A stretch of DNA of 64,000 nucleotides from a virus (lineage: Duplodnaviria; Caudoviricetes): IMG/VR virus record IMGVR_UViG_3300028805_000061. One strand, given 5' to 3'. A program made the position numbers and the translations under genes. This document shows positions 8,102-43,047 of the stretch, piece by piece; position 1 is the stretch's first letter; each line of letters begins with the position of its first letter. Below the pieces are notes generated by a model. It did no database searches, was not told the origin of the DNA, and saw nothing but the letters and a program-made list of their open reading frames with translations.

Positions 8102-8779
8102 ATGCCAACAGATAAATCTTTAGTTAAAGACTATTTATATCAACAATATGAAATGGCTCCAGAAGAAGCTGAAAGACATGAAATATTTGTTGAACGTGAA
8201 TTAGCTAGATTAGAAAAAGAGTTTTGGCGTAAACATAAAAAATTACCAAAAAGAGAAACAGTAGTGGGAGTTGCTTTTTCTCCAGTACCTATATCAAGAC
8301 ACAGAATTATAGAACCACAAGATTATAAAAATATTTTAAATTATAAAACTAGATACTCTTTAGCAGATGATAAAAAAGAATTTCCTTCAATATTTGACAA
8401 TGAGTTTGTATTTGGAATAAAAACTACTAAAAGAGTATTAATTGGTAGAGTTTATAAAAGGTATAGATGGAACAATGCTGATATTATAGGAATTATTCAA
8501 CTTATTGCAATGTGTTCTAAAGATGATAGAAGAATAATTCTTGCTTCAGGTTTACATGATTTCCTTTTAGAATATAAATATGAGATATATAATAAGTGGT
8601 TTGAACAAGACAGTTCATTAAGTGTTGATGAATTTAGGTGGATTACAAGTGATACATTTAGATGGCTTTGTGAAGAACAGGGTTTTAGACACAGTAAAGC
8701 TGTTGCTATGGCTAATATAATGGATTGTTTTCAAAAACATATAGAGAAAAAGAAATGGGACATAGAAATTGAATCCTAA
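8102..8779 (+). CDS. DUF1353-like protein (putative)
   Basis: Start moved to ATG 8102 (RBS GGAG); ASGLHDFLL...SDTFRWL resembles the DUF1353 HD motif. Confidence 0.45.
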   Translation: MPTDKSLVKDYLYQQYEMAPEEAERHEIFVERELARLEKEFWRKHKKLPKRETVVGVAFSPVPISRHRIIEPQDYKNILNYKTRYSLADDKKEFPSIFDNEFVFGIKTTKRVLIGRVYKRYRWNNADIIGIIQLIAMCSKDDRRIILASGLHDFLLEYKYEIYNKWFEQDSSLSVDEFRWITSDTFRWLCEEQGFRHSKAVAMANIMDCFQKHIEKKKWDIEIES

Positions 8780-9056
8780 AATTGAAAAAGAAATAAAGAA
8801 AGCAGTAGACAATAAAATAATAAGTTGGGCTTTTATCGAATATCTAAAACATTGTGAAAGAGAAATAAGAGCTAAAATTGTAGAAAAAATTATAATGTAT
8901 ACTTTAGGTTCATTTTTTACATTTAATATTCTTAATTTTATTTTCAGAAAAGAAATAGCTGAGATGATAGATGATGTTCAGAACTTAACTAAAGATAAGT
9001 TATCTGCTTTTATTGATAAATTAAAGAGATTTAGAGCTAAAAAACATAGTAAATAA
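8769..9056 (+). CDS. hypothetical membrane protein
   Basis: One hydrophobic segment. Confidence 0.5.
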   Translation: MNPKIEKEIKKAVDNKIISWAFIEYLKHCEREIRAKIVEKIIMYTLGSFFTFNILNFIFRKEIAEMIDDVQNLTKDKLSAFIDKLKRFRAKKHSK

Positions 9057-9075
9057 AAAGTATAGGGAGAATTTC

Positions 9076-9612
9076 ATGAATTATCATGATATTACTAAGT
9101 GTGATATGCTTAATGGGGATGGTTTAAGAGTAGTTTTATGGGTTTCTGGTTGTAGTCATCATTGTAAAGGTTGTCAAAATCCACAAACTTGGGATGGAAA
9201 TTCTGGAATTCTCTTTGATGAAAAAGCTAAACAAGAATTAATTGAAGCTTTAAAACCAGATTATATTAGTGGTATTACCTTTTCTGGGGGTGATCCACTA
9301 TATTTATACCACAGAAGAGAAATTTTAGAGCTAATTAAGGAGCTTAAAATTTTATTTCCTATTAAAACTATATGGCTTTATACTGGTTTTACTTTAGAAG
9401 AAATAATACAGTGGCCTATAGGAAAAGAATTACTTTCTTTAATTGATGTTTTAGTAGATGGAAGATTTATTTTAGAAGAAAGAGATCCTAATTTACAATG
9501 GGTGGGGTCACCTAATCAAAGAGTTATTGATGTACAAAAAACTCTCCAATCTTCACATATAATAAAACATTGTGAAGTATACTACGATAGTTATAAGGGT
9601 AAGAGATATTAA
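9076..9612 (+). CDS. nrdG: anaerobic ribonucleotide reductase activating radical-SAM protein
   Basis: NGDGLRVVLWVSGCSHHCKGCQNPQTW, GITFSGGDPL, WLYTGF, DVLVDGRF, GSPNQRVID. Confidence 0.95.
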   Translation: MNYHDITKCDMLNGDGLRVVLWVSGCSHHCKGCQNPQTWDGNSGILFDEKAKQELIEALKPDYISGITFSGGDPLYLYHRREILELIKELKILFPIKTIWLYTGFTLEEIIQWPIGKELLSLIDVLVDGRFILEERDPNLQWVGSPNQRVIDVQKTLQSSHIIKHCEVYYDSYKGKRY

Positions 9613-9645
9613 ATAAAAAGAGGAAGTAGATAATTATCTACTTCC
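9612..9645 (-). terminator. bidirectional intrinsic terminator closing cassette 1
   Basis: Perfect 24-bp palindrome GGAAGTAGATAATTATCTACTTCC (9622-9645) followed by a T-rich tract on the - strand; lies between convergent genes. Confidence 0.85.
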
Positions 9646-9674
9646 AAAGAAGTTTGGTAAAATATTTTGAAGTT
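9643..9674 (-). repeat. cassette 3' conserved element, copy 1
   Basis: TCCAAAGAAGTTTGGTAAAATATTTTGAAGTT, 31/32 identical to 37546-37577. Confidence 0.95.
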
Positions 9675-9679
9675 CCTCC

Positions 9680-10309
9680 TTAATTTCGCTTTGTGAAGGT
9701 TAAAATATCTGTTGTATCACCATTACCCTGCTGACTATAGCGATTATATCCACAACCATAAAGTTCACCATCGTTAGTTAAGTACCATGTTGTTGTATTT
9801 GAACAAGCAAAATCTTTTACATTACTTGCTCTTTGAGTAAACCTTGTAACATCTGTTGTATCGCCTGAACCTTGTTGACCGTAATTATTCCATCCACAAC
9901 CATAAAGTTCACCATCGTTAGTTAGATACCATGTAACGCTACTTGAACAAGCAACTTGTGCTACATTACTTGCTCTTTGAGTAAAATGTCTAACACTTGA
10001 TGTATTTCCTGAACCTTGTTGGCCATAGTTATTACCTCCACAACCATATAATTCACCGTTGTTAGTTAGATACCATGTTGTTATATCTTGGCCAATAATT
10101 TGTGCTACGTTACTTGCACGTTGGGTAAAGGTTAAAACATTCGCTGAACTTCCTGAACCTTGTTGATAATAGTAACTATATCCACAACCATAAAGTTTAC
10201 CATCGTTAGTTACATACCAAGTTGTATAATCTGAGCAAGCAAAATCTTTTACACCACCGGCAATTTTTCGAAATCCTCCAAGGGGTTCCAATTTTGTTTT
10301 TATACCCAT
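9680..10309 (-). CDS. RCC1/BLIP-II-like repeat protein (4 x 48 aa) with MGIKTKLEPLGG tag; putative receptor-binding tip protein
   Basis: Four 144-nt repeats V....CS...TWYLTNDGELYGCG.N.YGQQGSG....V..FTQRASN; RBS AGGAGGTG. Confidence 0.85.
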   Translation of the reverse strand: MGIKTKLEPLGGFRKIAGGVKDFACSDYTTWYVTNDGKLYGCGYSYYYQQGSGSSANVLTFTQRASNVAQIIGQDITTWYLTNNGELYGCGGNNYGQQGSGNTSSVRHFTQRASNVAQVACSSSVTWYLTNDGELYGCGWNNYGQQGSGDTTDVTRFTQRASNVKDFACSNTTTWYLTNDGELYGCGYNRYSQQGNGDTTDILTFTKRN

Positions 10310-10341
10310 AATAATTCACCTCCTAAAATATTTTATCAACA

Positions 10342-10385
10342 TAAAAATACCAGTTAAAAAAAATCCTATATAGGACACTCGAAAA
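10342..10385 (-). promoter_or_regulatory. cassette 5' conserved element, copy 1 (palindrome TCCTATATAGGA plus A8/T8 tract)
   Basis: TAAAAATACCAGTT-A8-TCCTATATAGGACACTCGAAAA, identical to 39029-39074 except tract length. Confidence 0.85.
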
Positions 10386-10465
10386 AGCTTTATCTTTTTA
10401 ACAAAAAGAAAACATTTTTTTCATTTCTATATATACTTATAAATAATTCAAATAGGAGAAAAGAA

Positions 10466-35843: not shown

Positions 35844-36149
35844 ATGCTAAATAATACACTTAATGAAATATTTAATGAAGTAGATAAAATAGACACACAT
35901 ACAAATAACCAATGTATGAATTGTGGAGCTAATTTACCCAATGAATATGCTACTAAATGTGAAGTATGTGGTTATGATTGTATAAGTGAATTTAGTTGCC
36001 CATACAAAGTAATAAAACAAATCCCTATACAAAATTCTCCAGTTACTTTAGCATTTTGTGAATTATCTAAAAAACAATGTAATGTACAAGGGTTAGACTT
36101 TGAAATCTGTTCAGTATTTAGAAGTTTAGATTCATTAAAGGATGATTAA
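35844..36149 (+). CDS. zinc-ribbon protein
   Basis: CMNCG...CEVCG. Confidence 0.65.
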   Translation: MLNNTLNEIFNEVDKIDTHTNNQCMNCGANLPNEYATKCEVCGYDCISEFSCPYKVIKQIPIQNSPVTLAFCELSKKQCNVQGLDFEICSVFRSLDSLKDD

Positions 36150-36843
36150 TATGTTTAATAATTATGATAGTTTTTTTCATTTAGATTTATGGGAAAGCTG
36201 TGAAAATGAAACTACTGGCTTTCCCATAAAAAGAAATAATTCTCTTAATAGAATAAATCAAATAATAGAAAAATTTGATAGCTTAAATGAAGCAATTGAA
36301 GTAGATGGTAAATGGTATAATAATTTAGAAGATGTATATCATGTAGGGTCAGCTAAGAAATTTGATGATGCCAGATTTTTATTAAATACCACTAATCCCA
36401 TGAATTTGAAAAAGAAATATTCTAAAGATAATCAATATCCTATAGATTTCTTTATTCAGTTCATTGATCCAAAAACTCTTAAAGTAGTTTCCTTTATGAT
36501 AGTATATGAACAAAATCCTTTTGGGGAAGGTTCTTTTGGTGGACAAAAAAATTGTTGTAGATTGATTCTTTATAAAACAAAAGCTTTTGCAATGGAAAAA
36601 ACTGATACAAAACATAGATTTGCTTTCATAGTAAAAAATGCAAAAGATATTAAAAATATTAAAGAAGATCCTTCTTTAAGAATATTATGGCAAGATGAAC
36701 CAAGAAAAACTATCTCCAATCTTAAACCTTCTGAGATTCATAATGAACTATTAGCTGCTGTAAAAACACTCAATTCAGCTGGTTATATAGTAATAGATGA
36801 TTTTGATGATACTATAGAAAGAATTTTAAATGCCACAAGATAA
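36142..36843 (+). CDS. hypothetical protein with possible head-targeting leader ending LNE
   Basis: LNRINQIIEKFDSLNEAI. Confidence 0.55.
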   Translation: MINMFNNYDSFFHLDLWESCENETTGFPIKRNNSLNRINQIIEKFDSLNEAIEVDGKWYNNLEDVYHVGSAKKFDDARFLLNTTNPMNLKKKYSKDNQYPIDFFIQFIDPKTLKVVSFMIVYEQNPFGEGSFGGQKNCCRLILYKTKAFAMEKTDTKHRFAFIVKNAKDIKNIKEDPSLRILWQDEPRKTISNLKPSEIHNELLAAVKTLNSAGYIVIDDFDDTIERILNATR

Positions 36844-37261
36844 AAGAACAGCTACATATAAAATCTTAAAAGCTAATATCCCTATAATTGAATCCTTATT
36901 AGCTGTAAAAGAAAAATCAGAAGGCTATAGATGTTTAGTATATTTTCCAATAGGTACTGATTCTGTTTATGGAGTATTAGATCAATATACTTACTATAAG
37001 AAACCTGATTTAGATAAACTATTTGTTTGTTTGTCTGCTGTTCAAGAATCCTGGCAAGGTACAATAGATGGTACACAATATGATCCATTTTTAAGTGATC
37101 CTCCAGTAATATTAACTACATTTGAAAAGAAATTACCTATAATGAGTAAAGTAGTTCTTTATTATAATGAAGGAATTAGAATTTTTAGAGTAGCTTTTCA
37201 TAGATCTTATGATGGTGCTAAACCTTATTTAATAAGAAATATGTTACAACCATTAAGTTAA
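36830..37261 (+). CDS. putative head closure/neck protein (gp14-like)
   Basis: G..C.VYFP...DSVYG....Y.Y...PD pattern; structural context. Confidence 0.45.
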   Translation: MPQDKRTATYKILKANIPIIESLLAVKEKSEGYRCLVYFPIGTDSVYGVLDQYTYYKKPDLDKLFVCLSAVQESWQGTIDGTQYDPFLSDPPVILTTFEKKLPIMSKVVLYYNEGIRIFRVAFHRSYDGAKPYLIRNMLQPLS

Positions 37262-37322
37262 TTTTAAAGTTATAAGCTTACATCCCTTATTAAAATATGA
37301 AATTAATAGGAGAAAATTTAAT

Positions 37323-37526
37323 ATGGATGAAGAATTAGAGAATAATTATAATACTTCTTATATAGTTATTCAGGAAATTGATACAATGGTAACAAAATCT
37401 ATTACTGTTTTAGGAGAATTTGAAAATGAAGAAGAGGCTAAAGAATTTATAAAGTATTATAAAACTATTCAAAAGCCTGTTTCTGGCTATATAAAATATA
37501 GAATATCTCTTTTTTATAGAAAATAA
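37323..37526 (+). CDS. hypothetical protein
   Basis: RBS AGGAG. Confidence 0.6.
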   Translation: MDEELENNYNTSYIVIQEIDTMVTKSITVLGEFENEEEAKEFIKYYKTIQKPVSGYIKYRISLFYRK

Positions 37527-37548
37527 AAGGAGAACATAAATGTTCTCC
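37521..37548 (-). terminator. terminator closing cassette 2
   Basis: GGAGAACAT-AA-ATGTTCTCC stem (37529-37548) followed by TTTTATTT on the - strand; same position as the cassette 1 hairpin. Confidence 0.8.
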
Positions 37549-37577
37549 AAAGAAGTTTGATAAAATATTTTGAAGTT
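37546..37577 (-). repeat. cassette 3' conserved element, copy 2
   Basis: TCCAAAGAAGTTTGATAAAATATTTTGAAGTT, compared with 9643-9674. Confidence 0.95.
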
Positions 37578-37581
37578 TAAA

Positions 37582-37671
37582 CTAATATTTCTTAGTAAAA
37601 GTCCAGACATTAGCAGTACTACTATCACCTTGCTGACTATAAAAATATTTCTTATATAATTTCTTTTTCAT
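37582..37671 (-). pseudogene. chimeric 29-aa remnant: foreign N-terminus plus last 19 aa of an RCC1-repeat gene
   Basis: MKKKLYKKYF-YSQQGDSSTANVWTFTKKY* compared with YSQQGNGDTTDILTFTKRN* of 9680..10309; RBS GAAAGGA. Confidence 0.75.
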
Positions 37672-37687
37672 AATTTATATCCTTTCG

Positions 37688-38998
37688 TTAATAAGGTTTG
37701 CAAGAGAGGGAAGCACCAAAGTTACTATAGGTAGAAGGACTATCGCTTAAAGGGCTGTTGTAAGCCAGATACACAGAGAAAAGACCACCATTGGATATGG
37801 CATTGTAGTAGCCACCAAAATAAGCACAACCAACGAGCGAGCTGGAAGAGCTCAGGGCGCAGCCGACTTGGTCGCAGTAGTAAGTATAATTTGAACCAGG
37901 GGTTGGATAGCCTGAAGAAGGAAAGTACCACATAATACCATCTGAAGTATTAGGCACTCCTAAATTGCATAAATTTATACCTCCAACTCCATTATATCCA
38001 GTATACGATTTATAACCTGGGCTACTACTTGTTGGGTCATAACTAATAGCAGTGGTTCCATCTGCTGTATAATTACACAACTTATAAAATATTTTTGATT
38101 GATAACAAGTTAAACCATTTATCCATTTATTACAATTACCCCATAAGTTTTCCATACCAAAGAATTTAACAGGTGTAGTGCTTGATGAAGTATTATTTGT
38201 AGAATAGAACATAGGCTTATCTTTTAATGAACCAGTAGAAGTCGTTTTTGTACCGCCTACAACTCCACCTCCACATTTACTTTGGCTATCTCTTGATTTA
38301 AACATTAAAATAAATAACATCTGTATCATTTGTAATGTTCCTAAGTCAAGAAAATCCCAACCGTTACCATTTGCTTGAGCATAAGTTCTCATTGTAGTAC
38401 CAGCAACTGTATTTACTAGAACAGTCCGTCCTGCTAAACTTCTTAATGTACTACCTGTCAATGATGGTTCAAAAGCTGCTGTATAAATTTCATCAAGTAA
38501 AATACCATTATTGTTATAATGTGAATAACAATGGTATTTGCCATCTACATTTTCAGGAGCTATAAAAACATATTGATATCTGCCTGTTGCGTCGGTGCTT
38601 AAATTAGTACCATCTGCTGAATTTGAAGTTCTAAATTTAAGCCAAACTTGTGGAAAACCTATCATGCAGTTTCCTTTGTATTGTCTATTACTTATATCAC
38701 TTTCAGTTCCATCAAGTTTCTTTGTAAAATCATTATGATCTAATTCGTAATCAACTGTTCCATCATACTTTAACATTACAGGTCTTGGCTGAAAGAAAGC
38801 ATTTTCCCAACTACCATAATCTAATTGACCTGTTGTAAAATCCATGCTCGCAGGGGTATAATCAGCGTTATTGCCAAAATATGTTACTGCTGTTGTGGGA
38901 TCAGAATTTGTGGTGTCTATTATAAAGCAATATTCTTCTGCGTTTCCACCTCTTTTTATTAAACCCCCTAAAGGTTCCAATTTTGTTTTTATACCCAT
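37688..38998 (-). CDS. C-type-lectin-fold (Mtd/FGE-like) receptor-binding protein with MGIKTKLEPLGG tag; DGR-target-like C-terminus
   Basis: Reads on the - strand (CCCAT at 38994-38998; track label + is wrong). FFGMENLWGNCNKWING...YYCD...FGGYY....NGGLFSV.L......S.FGASLSCKP. Confidence 0.85.
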   Translation of the reverse strand: MGIKTKLEPLGGLIKRGGNAEEYCFIIDTTNSDPTTAVTYFGNNADYTPASMDFTTGQLDYGSWENAFFQPRPVMLKYDGTVDYELDHNDFTKKLDGTESDISNRQYKGNCMIGFPQVWLKFRTSNSADGTNLSTDATGRYQYVFIAPENVDGKYHCYSHYNNNGILLDEIYTAAFEPSLTGSTLRSLAGRTVLVNTVAGTTMRTYAQANGNGWDFLDLGTLQMIQMLFILMFKSRDSQSKCGGGVVGGTKTTSTGSLKDKPMFYSTNNTSSSTTPVKFFGMENLWGNCNKWINGLTCYQSKIFYKLCNYTADGTTAISYDPTSSSPGYKSYTGYNGVGGINLCNLGVPNTSDGIMWYFPSSGYPTPGSNYTYYCDQVGCALSSSSSLVGCAYFGGYYNAISNGGLFSVYLAYNSPLSDSPSTYSNFGASLSCKPY

Positions 38999-39028
38999 TT
39001 TACTAATCTCCTTTTTAAAAGTATTTTT

Positions 39029-39074
39029 TAAAAATACCAGTTAAAAAAAAAATCCTATATAGGACACTCGAAAA
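39029..39074 (-). promoter_or_regulatory. cassette 5' conserved element, copy 2 (palindrome plus A10/T10 tract)
   Basis: TAAAAATACCAGTT-A10-TCCTATATAGGACACTCGAAAA. Confidence 0.85.
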
Positions 39075-39171
39075 GGATAAAAACAACAGAACTTCAAGAA
39101 AACTAGTAGTCACCTTTTTAAATTTTAAATTATAATAAACTTAGAACAATGATTAAAGGAGACATATATTT

Positions 39172-39720
39172 ATGAGACCTACGATTAACCAGCTTAGAGC
39201 TCTAACTGATTTCGCTCCCTCATATAGGTGGGATATGAATGCTGCATTACCAGCACAAGTTGCTCAAGCTATCAATTCTTATGAATTGAATTTAAGAACT
39301 ACTTCATTCACTATTCCAAAAAGAACCGTTGATCCAATAGAAGTTGCAAATAGAGGCCACAAAATTTATAGAGAAGGGATTACTTCATTCTCTCAACAAA
39401 TATCTCTTTCTACTATTGGTACAATAGATGCAATGGCTCATAAAGCAATTAGGAATTGGCACATGATGCAATGGTCAGATGATGGTCAAACTGTTTATGG
39501 TAGAATGTCTTCTAATAATCCATTAGATAGACAAGCTATTATTACATTAACTGCTTTAAATAATACTGACCAACCTTATTGGAGCTATACTATTATGGGC
39601 TGCTGGTTACAAGATAGTGATTTTGGAGAATATGGTTCAGATTCTTCAGATATTATTAGACCCTCTATGACTATCAATTATGATTACTTTATTGATGGAC
39701 CAGCTTCAACTGCAGCTTAA
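39172..39720 (+). CDS. tail tube protein (T4 gp19-like)
   Basis: YRW...TSFTIPKR...IEV..RG.KI...G...WH...YTIMGCW...SMTINYDYF. Confidence 0.8.
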   Translation: MRPTINQLRALTDFAPSYRWDMNAALPAQVAQAINSYELNLRTTSFTIPKRTVDPIEVANRGHKIYREGITSFSQQISLSTIGTIDAMAHKAIRNWHMMQWSDDGQTVYGRMSSNNPLDRQAIITLTALNNTDQPYWSYTIMGCWLQDSDFGEYGSDSSDIIRPSMTINYDYFIDGPASTAA

Positions 39721-39740
39721 TAATTTTTACTTGTTACTTT

Positions 39741-39772
39741 AGGAATTCCTATAAAAATATAGGGATTCTTTT
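39741..39772 (+). terminator. intrinsic terminator
   Basis: GAATTCCTATA / TATAGGGATTC followed by a T tract. Confidence 0.65.
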
Positions 39773-39842
39773 AGTGGAATTTAGTAAACTCATTGATAGT
39801 TTATATTATTAATAAAACTTATATAATTTAAGGAGAATAAAA

Positions 39843-40388
39843 ATGGCACAAAAAAGATTTGCAAAACTTATTGATGAACATCATATAGAATTTGCACCGA
39901 AAAATAAAGGTAATATTTTTAATTATGACCTAGATGAAGATTTAATGAGAGCTGATGGTTATAAAGAATTTGTTCCAGCTACTCAAGAAGAAGGAAAAAC
40001 TTATACAAATTATAGATATCAAGAAACAAGTACTAAAATTAAAGAACTTTGTGATGAAGTACCCCCTCCTACTCCAGAAGAATTATATCAACAAAGATAT
40101 GAACAATTCCATAGAGAATTTTTCAATACTTCATTAGGATATATTAGAAGAATCGTTACTAAAGCTGATGGTTCTACAGCTGATTTTCTTTTAGATTATG
40201 TATCACTAATTAATAAAGCAGTTGAATCTGGTTTACAGTATCCTATAATTACTTATGATGAACCAGACTTTAATGAAGATGTTACTGACTGGACACAATA
40301 TCAACATCATGTTTATGCTACAAACCAATTCATTTTGGAATGCTTAACTCAAGCTGGTAATGACTTTATTCCAGTAAATCCCGCTTAA
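39843..40388 (+). CDS. putative tail-fibre-associated/assembly protein
   Basis: N-terminal FAKLI...IEFAP...ADGYKEF..., PPPTPEEL linker, FFNTSLGYIRR; next to the RBP cassette. Confidence 0.45.
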   Translation: MAQKRFAKLIDEHHIEFAPKNKGNIFNYDLDEDLMRADGYKEFVPATQEEGKTYTNYRYQETSTKIKELCDEVPPPTPEELYQQRYEQFHREFFNTSLGYIRRIVTKADGSTADFLLDYVSLINKAVESGLQYPIITYDEPDFNEDVTDWTQYQHHVYATNQFILECLTQAGNDFIPVNPA

Positions 40389-40402
40389 TAGGAGTGTATT
40401 AA

Positions 40403-40882
40403 ATGCCTACTAATATTAATACAAAAAGAGATATTTTCAAATTCCTTAAATGGTTTAAGAAAGATGAAAAGAATTATAAAGGTCAACCTGCATGGGGTGA
40501 TTTGCAACAGGTAAATGGCCTTCTCCTTAGAATTTTAGATGAGTGGAGAGATGCTGTAGGTAAATCTTGTATTATACATGCTGCTTATGAAACTTCTGGA
40601 CATGGAACATATTCTGAACATTGTAGGGGAGACGCTATAGATTGTCATTTTGACAGATCAGTTTCCCTTTGGAAATGTTATGAATGTCTTCAAAAAGTGT
40701 TAGCTAAATATAATTTGCAAAATAGAGTTGGTATTGGAGTTTATACATGTTGGAATAATCCAGGTTTCCATCTTGATTTAAGAGGTTTTGAACTTACTTG
40801 GCTTTGTGAAAAATCTGGTACTTATATATATGATAAAGCAAAAACAATTGCAAAAATGAAAGCCTTAGCTGGTATAAAATAA
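40403..40882 (+). CDS. peptidase M15A-family Zn peptidase (putative endolysin)
   Basis: LL..LDE.R...G...I....SEHCRGDAID...GIGVY....GFHLDLRG. Confidence 0.8.
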   Translation: MPTNINTKRDIFKFLKWFKKDEKNYKGQPAWGDLQQVNGLLLRILDEWRDAVGKSCIIHAAYETSGHGTYSEHCRGDAIDCHFDRSVSLWKCYECLQKVLAKYNLQNRVGIGVYTCWNNPGFHLDLRGFELTWLCEKSGTYIYDKAKTIAKMKALAGIK

Positions 40883-40916
40883 TTTGTAGGTCCTTTTAAC
40901 TCCATTAATATAATAC

Positions 40917-40952
40917 AAAATGATAACTAAATTAATTTAGTTATCATTTTTT
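40917..40952 (+). terminator. intrinsic terminator
   Basis: Perfect 34-bp palindrome AAAATGATAACTAAATTAATTTAGTTATCATTTT. Confidence 0.75.
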
Positions 40953-41067
40953 ACATATTATCAAGTTATTTTCCTTCTTCATATAATCTATATTTGATTT
41001 TAAATTGTATTAAATACAGTCGTATTTTTATGTTTATACAATTAAATCAGAAAAGGAGATTAACAAG

Positions 41068-43047
41068 ATGCAATCAGCAAAAGTTATTGAATCTATCGTC
41101 GATCTTTCTGGTAGAGTAGGGACAGCCGAAGGTATATATGCTTATATTGCACTTCCTGGAGCTAAAAAAGGCCCAATGGGTAAACCTTATTTTATCACTA
41201 ATGTAGATGAACTCTTAGACATTTTTACAACAGAACAAACCATTAAACCTTCTGACAATTTAGCATTTTTCGATGCTCTTACTTATTTATCAAGAGCAAA
41301 CAAACTTTATTGTGTAAGACCAAATAATGGAGCTGGCTTTGGAGGTTTAGCAGTTCCTAAAGAACAACCTTCTGTAGTATGGACTAAACAAACTGAAGTA
41401 ACTTTAAATACTCAAGTAAGACCTACTAATTTCCCAGCAACAAGAATGGCTGGTACTTATTATGCAGTAGGTGAAACAATGAGACCTTCAGCAACAGCTA
41501 AATTCAAATTTGTTTGTACAACCGCTGGTACTACTTCTTCAACAGCAGTAGACTTCTCAGGAATTACAGCAGCTGGTCAAACAATTGAAGATGGTTCTTG
41601 TGTATGGACTTCTGCAGATATGAACCATCCTCTAGGATTTGTATATAAATGTACAACTGCTGGAACTACTGGAACAACTGAACCAACATGGCCCACTATA
41701 GCTACTGGAGAAGGTTCTACCGTTCAAGATGGTACTGCAGTATGGCAAGCTGTTGCAGTAGATACAGCTACACCCGCTACTACTTATGAGTTAGATCCAG
41801 ATGTAGACCATGTATTTGGTGAAAATGAAACAATGTATATATATGGTAAATACCCTGGTAAAGATAATGACAATATAGGAATTAGACTTTATACTTATCA
41901 AAATTATCCAGATGTAGTTAATGAACCTGATGCATTTTTAATTGAAGTATATTATAGAGGAACCGGACAACCTCTAGAAACATTTATATGTTCTAGATCA
42001 TTGACTAAAAAAGACGGTTATGGTCAAAATATCTATGTAGAAAATGCAGTAGCTTCTTCTAATTATATCAACGTAATAGATAACCCTGCAATAGATGAAA
42101 TAATAGACCCTGTAGATATTATTGAAACTACTTATATGGGTGGAGGTTATGATGGTATTGAAACTATTACAGACGGCATGATGATGGCAGCAGCTGATTT
42201 AATTAATAATAGAACTACTTTTCCAGTAAAATTATTAATAGATGGTAACTGGACTACTCCAAATTATCATAGAAAATTAAATGCTATTGCTGCTTCTAGA
42301 CAAGACTGTATAGCTTTACTTTCTACTCCTTATTCAGTAGAAAATTCTAAAGCATTTACTCAGGAAATAGTAAACTATAGAAAAGAAACATTAAATCTTA
42401 ATTCATACTGGTCAGCAATGTATACTCCTCATATTCAGATCTATGATCAATACAACGATAGAAATATCTGGATAGGAGCTTCTTCTTCAGCAGCAGCTAC
42501 AATATCTGAAATAGCTGTAAGCTTTGCGCCATGGTATCCTCCAGCTGGTCTTAATAGGGGTATACTACCTTCTGTATCAGATGTAAAACATAGATTCAAT
42601 GAACCTCAAATGGATATGTTAGCTGAAAACCAAATCAATCCAGTAGCATTCTTCTCTGGAGAAGGTATTGTTCTTTGGGGTAACATGACTTTATATAGTA
42701 GACCTTCTGCTTTACAGTCTTTGAATGTTATGTTATTAATTATTACGGTAATGCCTCAAATAGCTAAAGCATTAAAATACTATTTATTTGAATTTAATGA
42801 TAGTGATACTAGAGGTTTAATTAAGACTATAGTAGATGATTATATGACAACTGTTAAAACTAATAAGGGTGTATATGATTTCCAAACTTCAGTACACTCT
42901 ACAGATGATGATATTGATAATGGAAGATTATACGTAGATCTTATAATCAAACCTACATTAGCAATCAATGAAATCAAATTTAGAATTGTTCCGATTAGAA
43001 CTGGTGGATCATTCACTACTGCTCTTCAAATTCTTGGAGCTGAGTAA
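41068..43047 (+). CDS. contractile tail sheath protein (gp18-like)
   Basis: KGP..KP.FITN, A.SRQDCIALL, WYPPAGLNRG, QINPV, G.VLWGN.T, YLFEFND..TR, DIDNGRL.VDLIIKPT. Confidence 0.93.
   Translation: MQSAKVIESIVDLSGRVGTAEGIYAYIALPGAKKGPMGKPYFITNVDELLDIFTTEQTIKPSDNLAFFDALTYLSRANKLYCVRPNNGAGFGGLAVPKEQPSVVWTKQTEVTLNTQVRPTNFPATRMAGTYYAVGETMRPSATAKFKFVCTTAGTTSSTAVDFSGITAAGQTIEDGSCVWTSADMNHPLGFVYKCTTAGTTGTTEPTWPTIATGEGSTVQDGTAVWQAVAVDTATPATTYELDPDVDHVFGENETMYIYGKYPGKDNDNIGIRLYTYQNYPDVVNEPDAFLIEVYYRGTGQPLETFICSRSLTKKDGYGQNIYVENAVASSNYINVIDNPAIDEIIDPVDIIETTYMGGGYDGIETITDGMMMAAADLINNRTTFPVKLLIDGNWTTPNYHRKLNAIAASRQDCIALLSTPYSVENSKAFTQEIVNYRKETLNLNSYWSAMYTPHIQIYDQYNDRNIWIGASSSAAATISEIAVSFAPWYPPAGLNRGILPSVSDVKHRFNEPQMDMLAENQINPVAFFSGEGIVLWGNMTLYSRPSALQSLNVMLLIITVMPQIAKALKYYLFEFNDSDTRGLIKTIVDDYMTTVKTNKGVYDFQTSVHSTDDDIDNGRLYVDLIIKPTLAINEIKFRIVPIRTGGSFTTALQILGAE

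Follow-up and report, generated by a model that had tools for sequence, protein, structure and literature searches.

Phages change their hosts mainly by exchanging receptor-binding modules; such an exchange is usually inferred from mosaic similarity, and the junctions themselves are not visible. Morons are autonomous promoter–gene–terminator insertions located between conserved genes, and the classical ones are prophage genes that benefit the lysogen. The promoter-early stem-loops (PeSLs) of T4-type phages unite a promoter and a stem-loop in one composite unit and are shuffled by recombination between such units (PMC2839356, PMC4122927). The gp38 adhesins of T2/T6-type phages are small separate adhesins encoded beside the fibre gene, which attach by their N-terminal part and owe their specificity to an exchangeable C-terminal part (PMC3157838). 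A literature search on RCC1-type phage adhesins gave nothing specific.

The locus considered here, designated cassette 2, carries a lectin-type adhesin gene with a 29-codon open reading frame (ORF) directly behind it; another cassette of the same phage, cassette 1, carries an RCC1-repeat gene. The 29-codon ORF is very probably the recombination scar of an adhesin swap, that is, of ordinary phage gene shuffling with unusually clear junctions. Cassette 2 can be classed as a moron, an autonomous unit between genes that are adjacent in relatives: it has its own putative promoter and a predicted terminator, is oriented opposite to the surrounding operon, and occupies a site that is empty in three relatives. 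Unlike the classical morons, it has as its cargo a virion-type receptor-binding protein with a putative docking tag, and its frame is reused for different cargoes.

The resemblance to PeSLs consists in promoter/terminator motifs that are repeated in the genome, flank variable non-core genes, and border indels between close relatives. Here, both cassettes lie in insertions relative to L011 and L023, and the frame recurs in L025 with another cargo length. In contrast to PeSLs, the putative promoter box and the 3' box with the terminator are located at the opposite ends of a gene-sized frame that includes a coding tag, and a composite of a sigma-70 early promoter and a stem-loop is not found in it. 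The visible 3' crossover lies in coding DNA rather than in a motif, there is no sequence similarity to PeSLs, and the host group differs; the frame works like a PeSL but is not a member of this class. The likeness to gp38 is one of logic only: tagged genes of the type described here adjoin genes encoding a fibre-tip domain, but no sequence or fold relation exists, the putative attachment part comprises 12 residues and a flexible linker, and the cargoes are whole unrelated folds instead of hypervariable loops.

Insertion sites and cassette frame

The analysed stretch of 64,000 nt (the window) corresponds to bases 60620–124619 of a 144,741-bp IMG/VR virus record (27.7% G+C), which is complete according to CheckV. 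Nearly all genes are located on the plus strand, and two minus-strand units, cassettes 1 and 2, stand out among them (Table 1).

Table 1. Features of the two cassettes and their surroundings (window positions; G000 positions are marked)
Feature	Position	Strand	Remarks
1.35-kb insertion with cassette 1	9057-10407		radical-SAM activase-like gene (9076-9612, +) and convergent cassette 1; box 10357-10383, 3' box 9643-9673
Cassette 1 cargo, tagged 209-aa protein	9680-10309	-	4 RCC1 repeats; Pfam RCC1_2 E=6.7e-23, RCC1 E=1.8e-15
1.85-kb insertion with cassette 2	37263-39113		67-aa ORF and cassette 2; about 31 nt here in relatives
67-aa ORF	37323-37526	+	convergent with cassette 2, same insertion
3' box and predicted terminator	37519-37576	-	3' box 37546-37576, then hairpin 37529-37548 and T-run
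Chimeric 29-codon ORF and stop	37582-37671	-	directly behind the 436-aa tagged lectin-fold gene
RCC1-derived part of the ORF (putative)	37582-37641	-	end of a former RCC1-repeat gene (19 codons and stop); HMM, blastn
Donor-derived part of the ORF (putative)	37642-37687	-	16-nt spacer with RBS, ATG, at most 10 codons of a DUF4376-type gene; comparison with L007, L024
Cassette 2 cargo, 436-aa tagged adhesin	37688-38998	-	predicted C-type-lectin-type fold, as in DGR variable proteins
VR-like 3' end of the lectin gene	37691-37900	-	A-depleted, G+C-rich; variable region of an orphan DGR target
12-codon N-terminal tag MGIKTKLEPLGG	38963-38998	-	three genes of this phage agree in all of the first 26 nt
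5'UTR and RBS of cassette 2	38999-39028	-	matches the fibre-locus RCC1 gene (G000 31391), not cassette 1
Shared upstream element	39029-39075	-	box with 12-bp palindrome, T10 tract, extended -10-like TGGTATTTT
Full-length homologue (181 aa) of the DUF4376-type gene	39843-40388	+	tblastn 54% to the L007 172-aa protein, E=1.2e-56
Tail sheath gene	41068-43047
Fibre-locus tagged gene, 8-repeat RCC1 protein	G000 31391		behind the 579-aa fibre gene

L011, L012, and L013 are the three closest relatives (flank protein 89–90% identical), and in them the genes encoding proteins of 143 and 182 aa lie about 80–90 nt apart. The homology with these relatives stops at position 37262 and restarts at 39114–39121, and the flanking DNA is about 80% identical in the relative without the cassettes. 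A blastn comparison of the cassette 1 site gave a similar picture: the homology with L023 stops at 8982 and restarts at 10408. Position 8982 lies inside a 95-aa gene (8769–9056), whose full product aligns with a 93-aa protein of L023, and in L023 the gene of that protein is separated by 84 nt from a 264-aa gene, the insertion with cassette 1 being absent. Both insertions are built alike: a plus-strand ORF is convergent with a tagged minus-strand gene, the two share one bidirectional terminator, and the whole is absent from a 76-kb relative. A megablast search of positions 36000–41000 against GenBank phages returned no match.

Cassettes 1 and 2 share four elements, namely a 27-nt upstream box, a tag-coding start, a 31-nt 3' box, and a terminator hairpin. 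The upstream box of cassette 2 is identical to that of cassette 1 in all 27 positions (10357–10383), and it was missed by a scan for the sigma-70 consensus; its position and conservation suggest that it functions as a promoter. Between the box and the extended -10-like element, a T-tract can be noted, which is T8 in cassette 1 (10356–10363), T10 in cassette 2 (39043–39052), and T4 followed by A3 in L025. The promoter box was searched for in IMG/VR and the JGI metagenomes, and no match was obtained. The 3' box of cassette 2 differs from that of cassette 1 (9643–9673) at one of 31 positions. The terminator hairpin was found by a terminator scan (RNA fold z=-2.6); it is bidirectional and also serves the convergent 67-aa ORF. 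The stem sequences of the hairpin differ among cassette 1, cassette 2, and L025, while the pairing is kept, and the 3' box core TTTTAYCAAACTTCTTT, which is conserved across phages (9643–9673, 37546–37576, L025:505-525), is located just upstream of these unrelated stems. The 3' box might be a 3'UTR element or a recombination site. A search for it in IMG/VR gave three matches, all of them due to chance, within coding DNA of contigs with 42% G+C and without RCC1. The genome contains three copies of the upstream box and two copies of the 3' box.

The contigs L025–L027, which come from three samples, have the same box and a cassette-1-like 5'UTR; a tagged gene with two RCC1 repeats follows, and behind it lie the 3' box and a hairpin that differs in sequence. 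Since an RCC1 cargo is found in the same frame in both cassette 1 and the unrelated contig L025, the frame natively carries RCC1 cargo.

The third upstream box of the genome, with three mismatches, is located directly before a gene encoding a 192-aa HNH-like protein, without tag or cargo (L003:909-1527; G000 126293-126912, outside the window). The HNH_5 match of this protein is sub-threshold (E=3e-4). In L025, a 61%-identical HNH-like homologue (585-1103) lies directly behind the terminator of the RCC1 cassette, and a T-rich stretch before the ATG is common to both genes. The HNH-like gene could encode a homing-type nuclease tied to the mobility of the cassettes, or it could represent an "emptied" frame.

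Two halves of the 29-codon reading frame

The preliminary description of this DNA had noted, behind the stop codon of the lectin gene, an ORF with a GAAAGGA ribosome-binding site (RBS) and the start MKKKLYKK, and this ORF is present exactly as claimed. It begins 16 nt past the stop codon (37688–37690) of the 436-aa gene; the Shine–Dalgarno sequence is located at 37680–37686 and the ATG at 37669–37671.

The phage has 12 RCC1 repeats, which were used to construct a phage-specific RCC1 HMM; all 5012 six-frame stop-to-stop segments of the 144.7-kb genome were then searched with it. The HMM matched the 29-codon ORF with E=6.8e-5 (21.2 bits, HMM positions 17–34, 5012 segments). Besides the two RCC1 genes, this was the only match, and the next-best segment had E=0.23. 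A blastn search of the ORF region against the whole genome returned a single extra match, the 3' end of cassette 1. Positions 37561–37641 align with positions 9658–9739 over 81–82 nt with 70.7% identity (E=1.4e-7, whole genome searched), and the alignment of the ORF tail continues directly into the 31-nt 3' box. The last 19 codons are closest to the terminal repeat of the cassette 1 protein (40/59 nt, 10/19 aa), and they end in a terminal-type motif with the stop codon in register, as is the case in dozens of phage RCC1 proteins. The homology of this tail to the C-terminus of the cassette 1 RCC1 gene, as proposed earlier, is thereby confirmed by both HMM and blastn. The sharing at the nucleotide level that had been proposed with it holds for the wider 81–82-nt similarity but not for the common 11-mer, which is not significant alone (three matches with at most one mismatch; 21 of 100 shuffles were equal).

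The ORF matches the RCC1-repeat profile (PF00415/PF13540); the fragment corresponds to about 40% of one blade and is not a domain. Tandem blades or a propeller are not present, only part of one terminal repeat, and upstream of residue 11 the HMM alignment does not continue. Judging by its sequence, the 19-codon tail is a remnant of an RCC1 gene that no longer belongs to the RCC1 propellers. When the tail is compared with cassette 1, synonymous differences are found at conserved scaffold residues and non-synonymous ones at loop positions. The idea of a decayed copy of the present cassette 1 was rejected on this pattern of synonymous changes. The synonymous changes at conserved residues indicate that the tail derives from a distinct, once-functional RCC1 gene, which diverged while it was functional.

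The other half of the ORF leads to different phages. A stretch of 31 nt (37669–37699), comprising the last lectin codons, the stop codon, the spacer, the RBS, and the ATG, is identical to L007, a prophage-like Clostridia MAG contig with an integrase gene, which carries the closest full-length relative of the cargo (P0004, 75% identity). Past the ATG, 14 of 24 nt match the next gene of L007, whose product is 172 aa long, and the similarity of codons 2–9 is weak if taken alone. The next gene starts with M-Y-V-K-L-I-N-E-H in L007 and with M-K-Y-A-K-L-I-N-E-N in L024, and these first codons resemble the first nine codons of the 29-codon ORF (M-K-K-K-L-Y-K-K-Y). The gene following the adhesin belongs to one family, which is found behind adhesin genes of three cargo types (L007, L008, L018, L024, and L033). 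DUF4376 was detected in two members, with E=2.4e-12, above Pfam's cut-off, in L024 and slightly below the cut-off in L018. To judge from these alignments, the RBS, the ATG, and probably the first nine or so codons of the ORF belong to the beginning of the gene located behind such adhesin genes in other phages. The identity of 31 nt to L007 and the similar first codons place the 3' crossover within positions 37642–37668.

The preliminary description had proposed to look for the donor phage and to see whether its next gene begins with MKKKLYKK. The exact donor of the lectin gene was not found: the best full-length relative has 75% identity, and several lineages make up the mosaic of the gene. 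The next genes of L007 and L024 do have starts close to this one. The conserved tail block contains the phage's own full-length homologue of the DUF4376-type gene, which is two genes away from cassette 2 and oriented opposite to it, and the position of this homologue is the same in relatives without the cassette (L012:1284-1829). Its role may be in fibre assembly or attachment. As the full-length homologue is present, the truncated copy is dispensable.

The lectin-type cargo, the tag, and the fibre tip

The 436-aa cargo of cassette 2 has 340 homologues (best identity 75%) and matches the tail protein family phrog_5302 (E=6.6e-51), while a Pfam search gave no match. In the AF2 model of the protein (pLDDT 88.3, pTM 0.91), residues 1–18, which include the tag region, are disordered. 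With this model, Foldseek gave two DGR variable proteins among its top matches, TaqVP (5vf4, E=4e-10) and Mtd (1yu0, E=2.5e-4), and the predicted fold is that of the DGR variable proteins of the C-type-lectin type. Behind the tag, the cargo is nearly identical to its untagged relative P0012.

The VR-like 3' end of the lectin gene has an A fraction of 0.16 per 150 nt, which corresponds to the 0.1% quantile of the genome, and its G+C content is 45.5% versus 27.7%. High G+C was considered as a mark of foreign origin of the entire lectin gene and discarded, as the RCC1 genes are equally G+C-rich and the VR-like part alone stands out. A blastn search for a template repeat revealed no second copy of the lectin 3' end in the 144.7-kb genome. 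A PF00078 search of the whole record for a reverse transcriptase (RT) gave no match at E≤1, and the controls were detected. As for related loci, the lectin homologue in L009 has a TR/VR pair of 116 nt, in which all 19 mismatches are located at TR adenines, and an RVT_1 gene lies 414 nt downstream of the lectin homologue in both L009 and L010. The lectin of cassette 2 is an orphan DGR target, whose variable region is frozen without an RT or a template. It resembles the DGR variable proteins (BPP-1 Mtd, Thermus TaqVP) in its fold, in its A-depleted C-terminal variable region, and in having an L009 homologue diversified by a complete DGR. Unlike DGR systems, the present genome encodes neither an RT nor a template repeat, and the frozen target gene has moved to another expression context. 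The lectin product is probably an extra receptor-binding protein. A related-locus search in IMG/VR with the lectin protein and the 182-aa flank protein found nothing.

A comparison of the 5'UTR and the tag of cassette 2 with those of the fibre-locus RCC1 gene revealed 54 matches in 57 columns. Tag-like N-termini are found on seven lectin and three RCC1 homologues. The tag is also present on an unknown 390-aa family, on a protein with an intein/Hint-like domain, and on a leucine-rich repeat (LRR) protein, which gives at least five unrelated cargo types. In L017 (2418-4421, minus strand), two tagged genes are in tandem, encoding a 388-aa Ser/Thr-rich protein and a 273-aa protein with the intein/Hint-like domain. 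L033 (2001-3176) has another cargo type behind the tag, and in L034 (425-2875) the tagged protein exceeds 800 aa and contains leucine-rich repeats of the BspA type. Other short N-termini can be noted as well: M-x-I-F/H-S-K is common to lectin (P0014, P0016, P0021, P0022) and RCC1 (P0141, P0160) proteins, and many RCC1 proteins of small size begin with M-L-N-N-A-A-L-L. It may be that adhesins of this kind generally have short N-terminal tags that can be exchanged.

In eight loci (G000 31391, L008, L009, L017, L018, L024, L031, and L033), a tagged gene lies directly behind a gene that ends in a conserved domain about 100 residues long. An alignment of five such fibre-tip domains had a mean column identity of 65%. 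Two of the members tested, the 579-aa fibre protein and a 127-aa protein of L008, match phrog_9017, annotated as "tail fiber protein". The domain alignment found nothing in species genomes and gave just two contigs, already known, in IMG/VR. The lectin gene is located directly behind the fibre-tip-domain gene in L008, L009, L024, and L031, without the upstream box. What follows the lectin gene differs among loci: a DUF4376-type gene in L007, L008, and L024, and a DGR template and RT in L009; L031 ends inside the lectin gene. Two other roles of the tag were considered, that of a bacteriocin leader of the double-glycine type and that of a capsid-targeting sequence as in T4; both were rejected, since tagged genes belong to tail-fibre modules and the family matched by the cargo is one of "tail protein". 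The adjacency of the genes suggests a docking function for the tag, with the conserved C-terminal domain of the fibre as the place where the cargo is attached.

Proposed history of cassette 2 and its meaning

In cassette 2, the lectin gene and the head of its neighbour are enclosed between a cassette-type box on one side and the RCC1 tail, the 3' box, and the terminator on the other. The simplest reading of this arrangement is the replacement of an RCC1 cargo, and we consider it highly likely that a lectin adhesin, together with the head of its downstream neighbour, took the place of such a cargo. The frame would be a moron-like adhesin cassette consisting of the palindromic box with the extended -10-like element, the RBS, the 12-aa tag, the 3' box, and the terminator hairpin. 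Another phage, likewise with Clostridia-like hosts, would have supplied the incoming segment from a lectin-type adhesin locus, and this segment would comprise the adhesin gene, the 16-nt spacer with its RBS, and the first few codons (up to about 10) of the DUF4376-type gene. It would have replaced the RCC1 body between the conserved promoter element and the terminator. The 5' crossover would lie somewhere between the promoter element and about codon 17 of the lectin gene. The 3' crossover would have occurred in the last RCC1 repeat, in frame by chance, so that the neighbour head reads into 19 RCC1 codons, the old stop codon, and the old terminator. The 29-codon ORF would then be a non-selected joint left over from the cargo replacement. 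The incoming DGR-type lectin would have lost its RT and template, which would have frozen its variable region, and its product would likely use the tag to dock onto the tail fibre, at the conserved domain of the fibre C-terminus.

The main parts of this history were anticipated in the preliminary description. Its claim that cassette 2 was once of the RCC1 type agrees with the 3' part of the ORF, which is the end of an RCC1 gene continuous with a cassette-type 3' box and terminator. Its claim that a foreign receptor-binding protein gene and the start of its downstream neighbour replaced the RCC1 DNA finds support in the 31 nt identical to L007, in the similar starts of the next genes, and in the RCC1-bearing frame of cassette 1 and L025. 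The third proposal, that promoter, tag, and terminator were all kept, can be retained for the upstream box and for the 3' box with the terminator, but not for the tag, since it is the fibre-locus RCC1 gene that the 5'UTR and tag match. The fibre-locus type of the tag and the tagged lectins of other phages raise the possibility that the tag arrived together with the lectin. Relatives with an RCC1 gene at this locus, for which a search had also been proposed, were not found; the site is empty in L011, L012, and L013. Since it is empty there, the entire cassette with the 67-aa ORF is an insertion, and the swap need not have occurred at this locus. The cargo swap may have preceded the insertion of cassette 2; the presumed earlier state is a cassette with an intact RCC1 gene at this site.

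The joint could also have arisen by the reverse history, in which a tagged lectin and a full DUF4376-type gene were resident and underwent one recombination with the 3' end of an RCC1 cassette, no RCC1 body being replaced here. In line with this, the 3' joint alone is directly visible, the 5'UTR and tag of cassette 2 are nearer to the fibre-locus type than to cassette 1, and a tagged lectin followed by a DUF4376-type gene is a common native arrangement. However, cassette 2 has an upstream box, a T-tract, and an extended -10-like element of the cassette type, identical to cassette 1; thus, both flanks belong to a frame that has RCC1 cargo in cassette 1 and L025, whereas native lectin loci lie behind a fibre gene and do not have the upstream box. 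We therefore regard the reverse history as unlikely.

Two further readings concern the 29-codon ORF itself. It might be a functional gene kept by selection, for example one encoding a small basic peptide, or a spacer whose translation stabilises the mRNA or sets the position of the terminator. Its intact RBS 7 nt before the ATG, its frame open across both halves to the old stop codon, and its end 33 nt before the terminator hairpin fit such a function. Nevertheless, this appears very unlikely: no homologous small ORF lies behind the lectin relatives in L007, L008, L009, and L024, the truncation of a larger gene fully accounts for each half, and an in-frame join is expected by chance in one case of three. 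The alternative that an AT-rich spurious ORF merely resembles the end of an RCC1 repeat might appeal to the 11-mer, which by itself is not significant, and to the shortness of the peptide, just 19 residues. It is rejected by the genome-wide blastn and HMM results (E=6.8e-5 for the ORF versus 0.23 for the next segment), by the continuity of the DNA alignment with the 30/31-identical box and a terminator at an equal distance, and by the stop codon in register, and its probability can be considered negligible.

With cargo replacement as the preferred reading, both halves of one junction are traceable to their sources, which makes the direction of one event readable: RCC1 out, lectin in. Tagged genes can be located in autonomous cassettes remote from the fibre operon, and a DGR-diversified adhesin can be captured without its diversifying machinery. 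A very short N-terminal tag is found on five or more binding folds that are unrelated to one another, which suggests that it is a compact natural "adaptor" for adhesin loading. The modules seen behind the tag are the RCC1 propeller, the DGR lectin, the LRR protein, the Hint-containing protein, and an unknown fold. We tentatively suggest, as a possibility still somewhat doubtful, that the tag and the fibre C-terminal domain of about 100 residues constitute a general plug-and-socket of low-G+C (probably Clostridia) phages, in which any tagged module could be mounted on the same fibre. The present phage would then have three alternative adhesins, two of them from autonomous, relocatable frames, whose spread is perhaps helped by the HNH-like gene. 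If this is true, the scar in cassette 2 would be direct evidence that such frames are re-loaded in nature, and the docking of the tag onto the fibre would offer a simple handle on the host-range determinants of gut Clostridia phages.
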